NCBI GenBank assembly: GCA_963817895.1
Contig: CAWFQB010000003.1
Span: 352,001 to 416,000, forward strand
Reading direction: 5' to 3'
Origin: an uncultured Chthonomonadaceae bacterium
Lineage (GTDB): Bacteria > Armatimonadota > Chthonomonadetes > Chthonomonadales > Chthonomonadaceae
Length of the DNA stretch: 64,000 nucleotides
The position numbers and the translations under genes were made by a program. Of the stretch, positions 47,636-51,812 are shown piece after piece (the first letter of the stretch is position 1; the number at the start of each line of letters is the position of its first letter). The notes under the pieces were generated by a model. That model saw only the letters and a list, made by a program, of their open reading frames with translations. It was not told the DNA's origin and searched no databases.

Positions 47636-47692
47636 CACGAGATACGAGATACGAGAAGAGGAACCTCCCCTCTCGTATCTCGTATCTCATCC
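47636..47692. repeat. GAGATAC heptamer inverted-repeat element
   Basis: CACGAGATACGAGATACGA...CTCGTATCTCGTATCTC. Confidence 0.85.
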
Positions 47693-48433
47693 CTTCCTCA
47701 CGTACCACTCCGCGCACGCCTGCCCGTCTTTGCCGACGAAAAAGCCGATTTCATCCTTTACGGGGTCAATCACGAGGGCGATTTGCCAGTCGGCGCAGAA
47801 GATTTCCTCCTGCGTGTCTAAATCGGTTTGGGACAGAAAAACGCCCATGTTCGGGTGGGAGTGGTAGGAGCCGATCACCGTCCAATCGACGGGCATCTGC
47901 TGGAGTTGAGGCGCTAATGTTCGCCATGAGGCGGTAGTATAGCCGAAGAAGGTGGGGGTTTCAATGCCGTCGGGCGCGGGCAGGGCGTCGTGAATCAGCA
48001 GGAGGTACGAGCGCAAAAGGGGGTCGTAAAACGCCTGTCCGAGCAGCAGCCCGCCCTGTTCCACCTCCACATTGCCGCGCAAATGCGCCTGCGTTTTCTC
48101 TAAAGCCGCGCGATTGACAAAAATGTACGATTGTTGCGGCAAAATAGCGGGCAAACGCGCCAATCCAAGCGTTGGCGCGAACTCTGCGGCGGTAATCTCC
48201 GTCGGCGCGTACACATCCGCGCTCTCCTGCCACACAATATCCCCGGCTGTATCGGAAGCAAGCGCGGCAGTGGAAGAAATCCCGGCGACAGGCGCAGAAG
48301 CAGTTTCCTGTACTGTCTGTACCGCGTTCTCGGCAGGCTTGCCGGAAGTGGATACCAGCCGCGCAATACCGGCCGCCAGCAGCGCCACGCCGCCGAAACT
48401 CCCCAGTATCAAAGCCAAGTCCATACCGTTCAT
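47687..48433 (-). CDS. JAB/MPN+ (JAMM) metallopeptidase with N-terminal TM helix
   Basis: VEQGGLLLG and VIGSYHSHPNMGVFLSQTD (E...HxH-x7-S-xx-D), ALVIDP. Confidence 0.93.
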   Translation of the reverse strand: MNGMDLALILGSFGGVALLAAGIARLVSTSGKPAENAVQTVQETASAPVAGISSTAALASDTAGDIVWQESADVYAPTEITAAEFAPTLGLARLPAILPQQSYIFVNRAALEKTQAHLRGNVEVEQGGLLLGQAFYDPLLRSYLLLIHDALPAPDGIETPTFFGYTTASWRTLAPQLQQMPVDWTVIGSYHSHPNMGVFLSQTDLDTQEEIFCADWQIALVIDPVKDEIGFFVGKDGQACAEWYVRKG

Positions 48434-48505
48434 CCTTTAGGAAGGAGTAAGGGATAAGAACGAGAGTCAGGAAGTTCCTCCCTAACAACCTGACAACTTA
48501 TAAAC

Positions 48506-49165
48506 CTACTCCAACTCTTCCCAAATCAGCGTTGTGTCTTCGCGCAGGCTGAAAAGGGGAGTACCCACGCTGGATTTCTCGCTCACTGGTTCCTCCGGCA
48601 GTTCACCGGACTTCCGCATCAGCGCGCCGATGTCGGGAAGGTCATCTTCACTGACAACCGTGTTGGGTGGAGCGCCAACCGGCGGATCATCGCCCATAAA
48701 CGTAATATTATCCGTTGGCAGTATCAACAAGTTGCGCGTAACCCAGAACATCGCCTGCTCATTCGCCGGGTCCAGAATGTCCATATAGCGGCGGTCGAAC
48801 TGTATCATCGCGCCCAACCGCAAAACTAAATCTTCCAGATACTCCGTCGTCTGCCAGCTTCCCATGCACACGACCCGGTTTGTATATACGTGCGGATTGA
48901 AAATGGGAGTCAGCAGTTCGGCAACGGGCGCGGCGGAGGGAGCCGGGTAGCGGGACGGCAATTTAATGCGAACCCGACTGGAAGCGCGATACACGGGCTT
49001 GCCGTCTTTCAGCGCCTCGATACTCCGGCAATGGTAGGTCAGCACATACTCGTCCGGCGGGCGGCCCTTTGTGGACTCGATAACAAGCCTGCCGCCGCTG
49101 TTGGCCGCCAGAGCAAGCACTTGTTCATAATCCGCCTGTAGGCGTAGGTCGCGCGCGGTAGCCAT
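48506..49165 (-). CDS. Ubiquitin-conjugating enzyme (E2/UBC)-like protein
   Basis: RLQADY, IKLPSRYP..AP, PIFNPHVYTNRVVC (Cys at the UBC catalytic position), W, DPANEQA. Confidence 0.88.
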   Translation of the reverse strand: MATARDLRLQADYEQVLALAANSGGRLVIESTKGRPPDEYVLTYHCRSIEALKDGKPVYRASSRVRIKLPSRYPAPSAAPVAELLTPIFNPHVYTNRVVCMGSWQTTEYLEDLVLRLGAMIQFDRRYMDILDPANEQAMFWVTRNLLILPTDNITFMGDDPPVGAPPNTVVSEDDLPDIGALMRKSGELPEEPVSEKSSVGTPLFSLREDTTLIWEELE

Positions 49166-49166
49166 A

Positions 49167-49243
49167 AAGATACGAGATACGAGATACGAGATACGAGATG
49201 AAGAGTGTTTTACTCGTATCTCGTATCTCGTCTCTCGTATCTT
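49167..49243. repeat. GAGATAC heptamer inverted-repeat element overlapping the Ubl 3' end
   Basis: (AGATACG)x4 ... (CTCGTAT)x~4. Confidence 0.9.
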
Positions 49244-49503: not shown

Positions 49504-49562
49504 AGGTGAACTCCTGTTCCTGACTGCGCGGCGTGTCGCCCCAACTCGCTCAAGAATGATCG

Positions 49563-50831
49563 TTAATGTTCGCTATTGTTGCCATCGTACTCGCCTGAAA
49601 TTTGAACGTAATGTCGCGTGTCGCCCTGCTTGATTGCCACTATTTGATATTCAGGAATACGCAGAGCAGCAAGCGAATGACGCGCCCACTCACTATCTTT
49701 ATCCACCCAATTCAACGTTTGCGGCTGACGAGAAGGAGTATCACAACGCGGGCAATGATTGAGCGCAAGCGAACAGGTTTCCAGCGGCTGCAATATCGTT
49801 TCACTCTGCCCGCAGTTCAGGCACCGCATTTCGGTCAGCAGGTCAAACCCTAATTCGACAACCCCCTCCGGCATCCCTGCCTGCGCGAGCAATTCCACTA
49901 CGCTAAGTTCCGCCGCCCCCGCTCCCAAAACCGTAACGGGTTCCCACAGTTCATGCGCCAGACACTCCGCGCTGCGCGGCAGCGTCACCGTTTGCAATCC
50001 ATACGGCGCGACTGTCAGGTACAGCTTCTGGCTGAAGGAAAGGCCGACAAAGGATGAAGGATGAAGGATGAAGGATGAAGCCTCTGCTGCTGTTCCCTTT
50101 TCCCTGTTCCCTGTTCCCTGTCCTCGTATCTCGTATCTCGTATCTCGTATCTCTCCTGTTCCCTTCCTCCCATGCAGCAACAGCATCGCCTCATTCACGG
50201 CATACGCGGCGGCGAGGGAGGCGACGACGGCGGTGGTGGGAACCGCGTTTTCGGGCAGGTCGGCGCGCAGACCGCCACAGGAGAACCGTTGATTGCGGCG
50301 TTCCCACAGGGTTTCCGACATGGCGCACTCGAAACAGGCTTCGGGCGCAACGGTGTCGCGGCTCGCGAACAGGGCGATTTCTGCCAGCGTCGCTTCAATG
50401 CCCGTGTTGATCCACGGAACGCCCGCCCGGTTGCAGGCGCGATTGAGCGCGAGACGCGCGTTGATGCTGTCCAGACAGCCGATGACCACATCCATGCTGC
50501 GGTACACGCCCAAACCCACATCGAATTCCAGATTGCCCTGCGCCCATTGCGCATCCACATCCGGGTTCAAGGCGTGGGCGCGATCCGCCGCGACCTGCGC
50601 CTTGCCCCGCCCCACATCGGTTTCCCGAAACAAAACGCTACGCGTCAGGTTGGAAAGTTCAATCGTATCAAAGTCTACCAGCAGCAAATGCCCCACGCCC
50701 ATCAGCGCCAGCAGTTTGACGACTTCATTGCCGACCGCGCCGACGCCCGCAACCAGAACCCGCGCTGTCGCCAGCCGGGTTTGATCCCATCCTTCCAGTA
50801 GATAGTGTCGGGCGTAACGGTCCTGATTCAT
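49563..50831 (-). CDS. E1-like ThiF-family adenylyltransferase with catalytic Cys and Zn-binding motifs
   Basis: DRYARH, GVGAVGNE, DFDTIELSNLTR, GCLDS, ACFEC, RFSCG, C-terminal CLNC/CPRC. Confidence 0.93.
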   Translation of the reverse strand: MNQDRYARHYLLEGWDQTRLATARVLVAGVGAVGNEVVKLLALMGVGHLLLVDFDTIELSNLTRSVLFRETDVGRGKAQVAADRAHALNPDVDAQWAQGNLEFDVGLGVYRSMDVVIGCLDSINARLALNRACNRAGVPWINTGIEATLAEIALFASRDTVAPEACFECAMSETLWERRNQRFSCGGLRADLPENAVPTTAVVASLAAAYAVNEAMLLLHGRKGTGEIRDTRYEIRGQGTGNREKGTAAEASSFILHPSSFVGLSFSQKLYLTVAPYGLQTVTLPRSAECLAHELWEPVTVLGAGAAELSVVELLAQAGMPEGVVELGFDLLTEMRCLNCGQSETILQPLETCSLALNHCPRCDTPSRQPQTLNWVDKDSEWARHSLAALRIPEYQIVAIKQGDTRHYVQISGEYDGNNSEH

Positions 50832-50870
50832 AGCGAGAGTGGAGAGTGAGAGTGAAGAGTGAGAGAAAAT

Positions 50871-51045
50871 TTCACTACCGGACACATTTTTCCGGGTATT
50901 GAAAATACCCGTCTGAGTGGCGTTCCGCCAAGCGTCCTTCGGACGCGAAACTCTGAAAAACAAGCATTTGCGTCCGAAGGACGCTTGGCCGTAGGCCATG
51001 TAGACAGGGGTTTTCAACCCCTGGCAAAATGTGTCCGGTAGTGAA
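50871..51045. mobile_element. MITE-like element with perfect 20-bp terminal IRs, nested inside GAGAGT-repeat arms
   Basis: TTCACTACCGGACACATTTT (50871-50890) / AAAATGTGTCCGGTAGTGAA (51026-51045); internal IR and GGGGTTTTCAACCCC; outer arms 50836-50865 and 51062-51090. Confidence 0.75.
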
Positions 51046-51059
51046 GAGAAGATGCGTTT

Positions 51060-51812
51060 TTACTCTCCACTCTCACTCTTCACTCTCACTTCCTTTATCG
51101 TATTTCGCGCGTTGCAGTTGCAGCAGCAGCCCCGCGATTCCTTGCGCAGAAAGTTCCAGCCTTCCGGGCTGTAGCACAGTCCGCAATGGGAACATTGAAA
51201 CATGGGTCGGTTTGGGTTCAGCGGCTGGCGGGTGATGGGGCATACCAGTTTGCTTGAAGCCGCCGAAGCCGGGCGATTGGGAACGGGGTTGGCGAGAACA
51301 GGCGTCGGGGCCTGTAGATACGCCAACAATACGGCGACGACATGAGCGCAGGCTAAAGTTCGCGATGGGACTTGAATTGCATTGCTGTTACTGCCGCCGA
51401 CAGAAGCAGCGGGCGTAGAAGTCCGCTTCTGACAGGTGCAGGAAGCGGCTATTTCGCCGTCCTCAAATAAAATCTCTTGATCTTCGTAACGCTGTTCCCG
51501 CGTGGTTCCGGTCAGGCGTCCCCCGTGCGCCACCGCCCGCGTCACCTGCTTGCGCGTGACAAGCTGCTGCCCCTGCGCATAGATGTGGGGAGCGCACTGC
51601 GTGGCGATCCACGCGGGTGTCAGGTCCGTAAAAGCGCGTGGCGTTCCCGGCCTTGTTGGAGCAAACGGGTCCAGCGGCGTGAACTCAATTTCCGGCACAT
51701 CCGTATTCAACTCTGTGGCATTATACGCGCCCGGATTTTGCCCGGAACGGCCTCGCCGCCAGAATGTAAGCCGATCTTTTATTTCGTCAACCAATTCGCG
51801 TACTTCGCTCAC
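51060..51812 (-). CDS. SWIM zinc finger + C-terminal RING-like domain protein (putative E3)
   Basis: SCTC...CAHVVAVLL (SWIM CxC..CxH); CPIT-x12-CSHC..Y...W...CCNC. Confidence 0.8.
   Translation of the reverse strand: MSEVRELVDEIKDRLTFWRRGRSGQNPGAYNATELNTDVPEIEFTPLDPFAPTRPGTPRAFTDLTPAWIATQCAPHIYAQGQQLVTRKQVTRAVAHGGRLTGTTREQRYEDQEILFEDGEIAASCTCQKRTSTPAASVGGSNSNAIQVPSRTLACAHVVAVLLAYLQAPTPVLANPVPNRPASAASSKLVCPITRQPLNPNRPMFQCSHCGLCYSPEGWNFLRKESRGCCCNCNARNTIKEVRVKSESGE

Follow-up and report, generated by a model that had tools for sequence, protein, structure and literature searches.

A candidate ubiquitin-like conjugation operon with a RING/U-box-like partner in a soil-type Chthonomonadales bacterium

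We analyzed a stretch of 64,000 nt (the window; G000:C3:352001-416000) from the genome of a soil-type Chthonomonadales bacterium (Armatimonadota). Five neighboring genes in this window encode an activating enzyme (E1), a conjugating enzyme (E2), a ubiquitin-like protein (Ubl), a JAB peptidase, and a candidate ligase (E3) with a RING/U-box-like domain. The best explanation for the whole set, to which we assign a probability of about 0.62, is a chromosomal, single-copy, three-step pathway of Ubl conjugation. That the E1/E2/Ubl set serves protein conjugation, as had been proposed in an initial annotation of the DNA, is very likely; conserved catalytic residues, conserved gene order, and a RING partner that travels with the system support this view. 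The genes are as follows:

51060..51812, minus strand: gene 1, candidate E3 (250 aa, GTG start), SWIM plus one-zinc RING/U-box-like
49563..50831, minus strand: gene 2, E1 (422 aa from the ATG) with a ThiF-type adenylation domain
49210..49503, minus strand: gene 3, YukD-like beta-grasp Ubl (97 aa), predicted mature end His84-Gly85 (codon 49251-49249)
48506..49165, minus strand: gene 4, UBC-fold E2 (219 aa) with invariant C100 and N-P-H (residues 90-92) in place of HPN
47687..48433, minus strand: gene 5, JAB/JAMM metalloprotease (248 aa)

All five open reading frames (ORFs) have the same orientation and are devoid of internal stops, and each gene is present in a single copy in the genome. The order SWIM+RING, E1, Ubl, E2, JAB and the lack of frameshifts agreed with the initial annotation and were borne out by the ORFs, the folds, and the alignments with orthologues, which extended over the full length of all five proteins. 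Pfam matches were above the cut-off for the E1 (ThiF, 1.9e-47) and the JAB (Prok-JAB, 2e-6) and below it for the Ubl (YukD, 3e-4) and the E2 (UQ_con, 1e-3); no significant match was obtained for gene 1 in the Pfam scan. Folds and orthologue alignments nevertheless support all five family assignments. The ratios of nonsynonymous to synonymous substitution rates (dN/dS) relative to the closest relative were about 0.18 for gene 1, 0.15 for the E1, 0.11 for the Ubl, 0.14 for the E2, and 0.29 for the JAB, with 0.09 for mdh, and thus all five genes are under purifying selection. The GC content of the operon was unremarkable, and close relatives of the E2 carry the labels Chthonomonadaceae or Chthonomonadales.

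Folds and conserved residues of the five proteins

The E1 residues C166, C169, C185, C290, and H293 were invariant in all 23 aligned E1s. C166/C169/C290/H293 were assigned to a zinc site and C185 to the catalytic position. In the predicted model (pLDDT, predicted local distance difference test, of 87), residues 1-294 matched MoeB/ThiF with Z 31. The alignments to ThiF/MoeB ended at residue 294, while those to UBA3 (2nvu), the SUMO E1 (9dqb, 308 residues, root mean square deviation (rmsd) 4.0), and Uba1 reached residue 412-414. Our reading of the model is that the C-terminal part represents a eukaryote-like ubiquitin-fold domain (UFD) with an inserted zinc ribbon. Two features were thus assigned to the E1:

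49590..49946, minus strand: UFD-like C-terminal domain with inserted zinc ribbon, approximately residues 296-414, delimited by whole-E1 alignments
50052..50165, minus strand: in-frame heptamer-repeat insertion in a loop, residues 223-260

The loop insertion was disordered in the model (pLDDT < 50) and present in the closest genomes only. Similar stretches occur genome-wide, and we rejected it as a functional part since it is genomic repeat DNA.

The Ubl gave weak matches to ubiquitin; for YukD, see PMC1779556. Gly85 was invariant in 12 of 12 orthologues and in 20 of 20 sequences of another set, and His84 was present in 11 of the 12. Three of the 12 proteins stop directly after His-Gly and the others carry unrelated tails, and we therefore placed the mature end at His84-Gly85. 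The ORF in the window extends 12 residues beyond Gly85, mostly as heptamer repeats. The initial annotation had described a beta-grasp protein ending in HGG(G): the fold was retained, the end was not, as only Gly85 is invariant. Gly-Gly as the conjugating end was rejected, since residue 86 is Gly in only 4 of 12, and the tail, being genome-wide repeat DNA, was rejected as a functional part. Members of the Ubl family are fused to unrelated larger domains in P0134, P0154, and P0170.

In the E2, C100 and H92 were invariant in 40 of 40 aligned sequences. Among 55 further E2s, the HPN position read HPH in 49 and NPH, as in the window, in 3 (3 unread); the E2s of sister operons retain HPN. The closest solved relatives were UBE2L3, UBE2L6, and UBC9. 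HPH is the signature of Ube2W, where it is linked to transfer onto N-terminal alpha-amines (PMC4630614). The window E2 is like the Ube2W family in that His replaces the Asn of HPN, but it showed no sign of common ancestry with that family, which was not among the best 60 solved matches. If convergent, the (H/N)PH motif does not prove Ube2W chemistry. Viral contigs and phage records contained no relative of the E2. In P0045, P0049, and P0152, the Ubl is naturally fused to an E2 that has HPH and ends in a Trp motif.

The JAB residues E125, H191, H193, S201, and D204 were invariant in 11 of 11 sequences. An N-terminal hydrophobic helix (residues 6-24) is present in the window protein. A helix with a mean hydropathy of at least 1.8 was found in only 6 of 16 JABs, and a membrane helix was therefore rejected as an obligatory part.

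Two domains were distinguished in the gene 1 protein (model pLDDT 79.5):

51300..51632, minus strand: SWIM zinc-finger domain, optional, approximately residues 61-171
51066..51263, minus strand: RING/U-box-fold domain, approximately residues 184-249, with C207, C210, C230, C233, and W219

Residues 61-171 matched ZSWIM8 (VIA Z 8.7, rmsd 2.4, 88 residues). The Pfam SWIM model scored in 2 of 8 family members, and SWIM was missing from 6 of 21 aligned orthologues, so that it was rejected as an obligatory part. Residues 184-249 matched RING/U-box domains in most of the other 49 matches listed (Z 5.1-6.8). The four cysteines and W219 were invariant in 21 of 21 orthologues. At the second zinc site, T194, S215, and G218 stand in place of three ligands, so that the two-zinc C4HC3 pattern of PF14446 is not present; RINGs reduced to their central and C-terminal ligand pairs are mentioned for bacteria in PMC11354881 (section 3.8). 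The profile of the gene 1 family itself matched Prok-RING_1 proteins (best E 3e-5). Residue 193 is hydrophobic in the orthologues (Ile in the window), and by alignment I193 and W219 appear to sit where I30 and W58 matter in the RING of Caldiarchaeum. The dN/dS of the RING domain was about 0.14. The fold matches, the profile match, and the co-occurrence described below give moderate support to a RING-fold protein encoded with E1, E2, Ubl, and JAB, and this protein probably acts as E3. The initial annotation had inferred a dedicated E3-like SWIM-RING component; a RING/U-box-fold partner indeed travels strictly with the system, but SWIM is dispensable, one zinc site is lost, and no linchpin residue is conserved.

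A motif shared by E2, RING protein, and JAB

The E2, the RING protein, and the JAB carry a short hydrophobic motif, which is missing from the Ubl and from the window E1:

48512..48526, minus strand: I-W-x-x-L at the C-terminus of the E2 after a variable linker, residues 214-218
51672..51689, minus strand: I-x-F-x-x-L in the RING protein, residues 42-47
48203..48238, minus strand: I-x-W-x-E-x-x-D, N-terminal motif of the JAB, residues 66-77

W215 of the E2 was invariant in 40 of 40 sequences. In a first set of 50 E2 tails, Trp was present within the last nine residues in 46 and W-x-x-L/I/V in 40, with Trp being rare in the linker (17 of 1748 residues). A held-out set was obtained from 63 new proteins after removal of 8 that had already been seen and 7 without a readable full tail. 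All 48 tails contained the Trp, and 44 contained WxxL/I/V, compared to a mean of 1.4 and a maximum of 6 in shuffles. In the RING proteins, I/V-x-F/W-x-x-L/I was found in 20 of 21 aligned sequences and in 4 further proteins from split loci, and it stays just in front of the RING in orthologues that lack SWIM. W68 and D73 of the JAB were invariant (11/11), and the pattern I-x-W-x-E/D-x-x-D was present in 15 of 16.

The larger sister operons of Armatimonadota have acidic alternating strands on the ends of E1, E2, JAB, and RING proteins (28 of 62 proteins; shuffles 3.3, maximum 9), a pattern that was derived from the same sister sequences in which it was counted. It was also seen in 19 of 120 other ORFs of these loci, which include unlabelled operon genes, and in none of 8 Ubls. 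Five Chloroflexota operons have basic strands and an acidic Ubl helix alpha1 (E/D31, E35), with a helix charge of -1 and tails of +3 to +6. In 24 operons the helix charge is 0 to +4 with tails of -6 to +1. The charges of motif and Ubl helix thus flip together in the sister operons, in a manner resembling the docking of SUMO-interacting motifs (SIMs) on SUMO, although there is one independent flip only. As in SIMs and in Atg8-interacting motifs (AIM/LIR), short hydrophobic strands with charged flanks are located in disordered ends of E1, E2, E3, or protease, and the modifier has the matching opposite charge on its beta2/alpha1 face. The system differs in being bacterial, in its alternating pattern instead of a classic SIM, and in that the docking is a prediction. 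The AIM consensus is W-x-x-L, and we take the E2 end to resemble the AIMs of yeast Atg19 and Atg3, a likeness for which our literature search gave no confirmation. On SUMO, the SIM site is located between beta2 and alpha1, close to basic residues, and according to a 2025 review the SIM groove is not known from any prokaryotic system (PMC12687455). Binding of the shared motif to the Ubl is somewhat more likely than not.

Distribution, genomic setting, and further features

The distribution was surveyed in 41 genomes, the own genome and 40 relatives. E2, Ubl, and JAB (E 1e-30) were each found in 13 genomes, E1 (E 1e-50) in 12, and the RING protein in 12, with two additional weak SWIM-only matches. 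All five genes were present in the same 12 genomes, and 28 genomes had none of them with these queries; in G016 (67% complete), three of the genes are present, and the E1 is represented by an end at the edge of a contig. Since the search profiles were built partly from the surveyed genomes, the informative observations are the 28 blanks and the genes located away from the operon. Among 12 relatives, 7 keep the five-gene order; the contig of G003 ends inside the E1, the locus of G016 is cut, and in G006, G008, and G010 the genes are split over three places each. G280 holds all five genes in two places. Presence in the 41 genomes is all-or-none, with strict co-occurrence of the RING protein and the other four genes, and is maintained even after splitting. 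In wider searches, E2s of the family were found in 44 of 301 genomes of the phylum, 11 of them of the window type, and in 9 of 401 Chloroflexota genomes. The window-type RING was not found in the Chloroflexota genome G312, which is incomplete and thus gives no evidence of absence.

The neighbors of the operon are ordinary genes that change between genera, and no sixth conserved gene was present among recurring neighbors. PADLOC models matched 11 of 111 flanking ORFs at 1e-8, scattered and in two cases via ankyrin repeats alone. No match adjoined a five-gene operon apart from ankyrin repeats 2 kb away. A defense island was not seen among these 111 ORFs; the initial annotation had likewise noted no obvious defense island. 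The 10 flanking ORFs scanned in the window (40378-57094) encode a transglutaminase, a TIM barrel, two ankyrin proteins, Icd, Mdh, a 3-keto-disaccharide hydrolase, HEAT repeats, and a sugar transferase, with one blank. Genes for thiamine, molybdopterin, or cysteine synthesis, which had likewise been reported as missing nearby, were not among them. The location beside icd-mdh was correct for the window, but this adjacency exists in the two closest genomes only, and icd-mdh was rejected as conserved context because the neighbors in other genera differ.

In 5 of 21 loci compared (L016, L021, L024, L031, L034), the operon follows genes for a circularly permuted ATP-grasp protein, Alpha-E, transglutaminase, and P-II on the same strand, with an overlap between the stop of P-II and the start of the RING gene in L021. 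We take the permuted ATP-grasp/Alpha-E/transglutaminase set to be a predicted peptide-tagging module and P-II to be a nitrogen regulator.

Three noncoding features were located at the operon:

51895..51923, minus strand: sigma-70-like promoter located about 80 nt upstream of gene 1, with a 17-nt spacer and agreement with the consensus at 11 of 12 bases
50867..51060, no strand: palindromic element of about 180 bp between gene 1 and the E1, resembling a miniature inverted-repeat transposable element (MITE), outside the conserved system
47626..47688, no strand: inverted heptamer arrays between the convergent mdh and JAB genes, probably a terminator hairpin

Both promoter hexamers are retained in the closest relative L014 with a diverged spacer; the promoter was not seen in the relative L015. 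The MITE-like element occurs at 34 genomic places of at least 130 bp, often together with shorter relatives of 35-60 bp, and its hairpin has -159.7 kcal/mol (z -16.9, folded with flanks). In L014, the gap between gene 1 and the E1 is only 2 nt, as opposed to the repeat element in the window genome. With this element in place, no purine-rich ribosome site precedes the E1 ATG, and the E1 frame stays open up to a TTG at 51017. As a genome-wide repeat, it was rejected as a functional part.

Arrays of 7-8 bp units are common in the genome (74, 92, and 70 arrays of at least three copies for three units). Such arrays are located in the window at 42952-43032, 47626-47688, 49168-49242, 50050-50153, and 59630-59732, and enter coding sequence in frame in the E1 loop, the Ubl tail, and the N-terminus of the TIM-barrel protein. 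The icd gene is broken into ORFs in two different frames (45455-46216 and 46171-46623; in total 45455-46623), and a Pup-ligase-family gene on contig C14 is likewise split. Both breaks probably stem from errors in the assembly, and no such break was seen in the five operon genes. The ORF text suggests a tRNA-like stretch on the plus strand at about 55586-55662.

Proposed pathway, known systems, and alternatives

In the pathway that we propose, the JAB would trim the pro-Ubl after His84-Gly85 and would probably also remove conjugates. A need for the JAB is expected because most Ubls carry unrelated tails past Gly85, as in Caldiarchaeum (PMC5654768). The ThiF-type E1, as a putative homodimer, would adenylate Gly85 and move the Ubl to a thioester on Cys185, and its C-terminal UFD would bind the E2, which would accept the Ubl on Cys100. 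The one-zinc RING protein would then bind the E2 and promote transfer to a target amine, with SWIM, where present, as a likely target- or nucleic-acid-binding module. The short beta-strand motif of E2, RING protein, and JAB may dock in the beta2/alpha1 groove of the Ubl, like SIMs on SUMO, and may thereby concentrate writer and eraser on the tagged protein. This scheme follows the reconstituted Caldiarchaeum cascade, in which the Ile and Trp of the RING matter (PMC5654768).

The operon, with E1, E2 with its active Cys, JAB, and Ubl in one conserved neighborhood, represents a variant of the tri-ligase Ubl systems with a RING in bacteria, as judged by the description in Kaur 2020 (PMC7159879). 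These systems, with JAB, E1, E2, RING-type E3, and Ubl in one neighborhood, had been predicted by Burroughs, Iyer, and Aravind in 2011, as cited there. Relative to that description, the window operon has five small genes, a soluble RING that lost one zinc site and is often fused to SWIM, an (H/N)PH E2, and a W/F-type motif, and it lacks FHA, vWA, protease, and EAD partners and lies outside a MoxR/FtsH conflict locus. A UFD-bearing E1, a RING minus one zinc site, the (H/N)PH E2, and the W/F-x-x-L putative docking motif are traits of its clade. An EAD-linked E1/Ubl/E2 set is also on record (PMC8195603). Within the phylum, sister operons of tri-ligase type have an E1 of the same type, and their PF14446 matches exceed the cut-off. 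In other Armatimonadota families (L082-L088, L093-L096), they have up to two E2s, several JABs (some with a membrane helix), several membrane Prok-RING_1 proteins, a trypsin-like membrane protease, an FHA protein, and acidic alternating end motifs. The Chloroflexota operons L161-L165, which have the basic motifs and the acidic Ubl helix described above, encode GntR-E1, a membrane RING, a Ubl-E2 fusion, Ubl, JAB, FHA, and vWA.

The best experimental model is the Ub/E1/E2/srfp/Rpn11 operon of Caldiarchaeum subterraneum (Hennell James 2017, PMC5654768). It shares the five functions, a pro-Ubl trimmed by a JAMM protease, a C-terminal ubiquitin-like domain of the E1, and a small RING whose E2-facing side contains Ile and Trp. 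The window system likewise has a pro-peptide on the modifier and, from the whole-E1 alignment, a UFD. The archaeal ubiquitin ends in Gly-Gly and its RING-H2 has two zinc ions and an Arg linchpin, whereas the window system has a single Gly after His (Gly86 in 4/12), a one-zinc RING, and a YukD-like Ubl.

The operon is not Bil, Bub, or CBASS (for definitions of Bil and Bub, see PMC11601596 and PMC11601603). With BilABCD of types I and II (Chambers 2023, PMC10557695), it shares separate genes for Ubl, E2, JAB, and E1, a predicted single-glycine end exposed by the JAB, and predicted Cys chemistry. BilD is described there as IAD-AAD-CYS without UFD, and these systems as having no E3, a CEHH-type E2 in type II, and a location in defense islands, none of which applies to the window operon; its E1 consists of one adenylation domain and a C-terminal ubiquitin fold, and a RING partner is present. 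PADLOC at E 0.01 gave no match to BilA, BilB, or BilC, and the BilD match covered 67 residues of the ATP-binding core. Bub (6E/DUF6527; Ye 2024, PMC11601596) shares E1, E2, and JAB blocks but is described with Tyr/Ser oxyesters, fusions, and BubE; here C185 and C100 are invariant and there is no sixth conserved gene. The same blocks occur in CBASS type II Cap2/Cap3, there as an E2-E1 fusion with a CD-NTase; in the window, E1 and E2 are separate genes, and no CD-NTase was present among the flanking ORFs. Our literature search, which covered few subscription papers, turned up neither a bench test of a RING cascade from bacteria nor any paper about this clade or motif.

As to the role, reversible regulation or quality control of own, partly membrane-near proteins is most likely, rather than a mobile anti-phage cassette, and we give a host-directed function even odds. 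It is favored over an anti-phage function because the genes survive splitting and sit among ordinary genes. The suggestion of the initial annotation, regulatory rather than antiphage, is thus plausible, its basis being genomic context. An anti-phage or conflict system like Bil, in which the Ubl would modify an invader protein, or else a host protein so as to bring about arrest, with RING/SWIM picking the target, is unlikely. It would fit the defense link of every tested bacterial Ubl conjugation system (as described in PMC11601596 and PMC10557695), the patchy presence (13/41; 44/301 for the wider family), the flanking genes that differ between genera, the occurrence of tri-ligase modules in conflict systems (PMC7159879), and a distant cassette on a plasmid. 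The PADLOC results on the operon and its scattered flanking matches speak against it, as do the retention of all genes after splitting in G006, G008, G010, and G280, and the single copy with a strong housekeeping-type promoter. Unlikely, too, is a two-step E1-E2 pathway, with the degenerate RING protein serving as a scaffold or sensor instead of a catalytic E3 and the E2 finding its targets directly with the aid of its tail. The lost zinc site, the missing linchpin, and the diverged E2 loop 4 would agree with this, as would the function of Bil without E3 (PMC11601596), the ability of Ube2W-type E2s to act without E3 (PMC4630614), and the loci L044, L159, and L160 with E1-Ubl-E2-JAB and no RING found alongside (two are short contigs). 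However, W219 is invariant and residue 193 hydrophobic at E2-binding positions of RINGs, the RING domain is under purifying selection and strictly co-occurs with the other genes, and one-zinc bacterial RINGs and U-boxes are known forms (PMC11354881).

A tag for degradation by the host 20S proteasome, parallel to a Pup/UBact-type system, is improbable. Two Pup-ligase-family genes lie together with proteasome alpha/beta-like genes on C14 (G000:C14:121594-130062), and coupling of a related Ubl system to Pup conjugation is described in Kaur 2020 (PMC7159879). The family member L089 (G018:C18) shows such coupling: a divergent set of RING-like, E1, E2, Ubl, and JAB genes lies immediately before an AAA ATPase-like gene, genes of the Pup-ligase family, and a small Pup-like ORF. 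The ligase genes are present in 40 of 41 genomes as against 13 of 41 for the operon, so that their co-occurrence is uninformative, and the operon is unlinked to the C14 locus. No receptor on this proteasome is known for a folded beta-grasp tag. A sulfur-carrier or small-molecule pathway of the ThiF/MoeB type, with a Ubl thiocarboxylate and the other genes as passengers, is very improbable: the adenylation domain is nearest to MoeB/ThiF in fold, but the 10 flanking ORFs include no sulfur-pathway genes, the Pfam scan of the operon proteins gave no rhodanese domain, a RING protein and an E2 whose Cys is invariant accompany the E1, the NCBIfam ThiF/MoeB scores of the E1 are far below the cut-off, and a separate ThiF-family gene is located on C5.

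Several observations weigh against the three-step, host-directed pathway that we prefer. The patchiness, typical of conflict systems, and the record of tested systems favor an anti-phage role, and according to Kaur 2020, tri-ligase systems are located within conflict systems (PMC7159879). The E2 and marker trees gave 1 and 0 starred branches and do not establish vertical descent; the distance correlation with a core gene was modest (rho 0.65, or 0.42 without the outgroup). A distant cassette of E1, two small ORFs, E2, and JAB (L166, NC_019754.1) adjoins a conjugative transfer gene on a mobilisable cyanobacterial plasmid. As to the RING, the fold matches are middling (the bar of the tool is Z 8), Foldseek of gene 1 gave no match at E ≤ 0.001 (best E 0.0011), PF14446 (Prok-RING_1) had no above-cut-off match in the window genome (best E among family members 0.0084), and the profile match to canonical Prok-RING was weak (probability 7%, E 0.005). 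Variation in the residue that follows the last RING Cys (D5 N4 E3 G3 R3 H2 Q1) leaves no conserved linchpin; the loop-4 aromatic of the E2 is not conserved either. As to docking, the JAB motif may be part of the JAB fold. The rank correlation of charges (rho -0.68, n 29) overstates the flip, which is confined to one clade and therefore represents one evolutionary event. Ubl position 31 is acidic in the clade of the window itself, so that the match to the sister charge pattern is indirect.

Conjugation in bacteria has been demonstrated for two-step systems lacking an E3 (Bil, Bub, CBASS), and the RING-containing systems have been predictions since 2011. With five small genes, a soluble RING, and at most one membrane helix, as opposed to the larger, membrane-built sister operons, the set would offer a convenient starting point for the reconstitution of an E1-E2-E3 cascade from bacteria. 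A bolder version, in which such a cascade regulates own proteins with its own SUMO/Atg8-style reading code and a His-for-Asn E2 that tags N-termini or non-lysine sites, is rather doubtful; if true, both non-covalent Ubl readers and alpha-amine tagging would exist in bacteria. Two sharp questions follow: whether a SIM/AIM-like groove exists outside eukaryotes, and whether tagging of N-termini can be predicted from the His-for-Asn signature of an E2. Each of them would bear on the origin of eukaryotic ubiquitin/SUMO logic.

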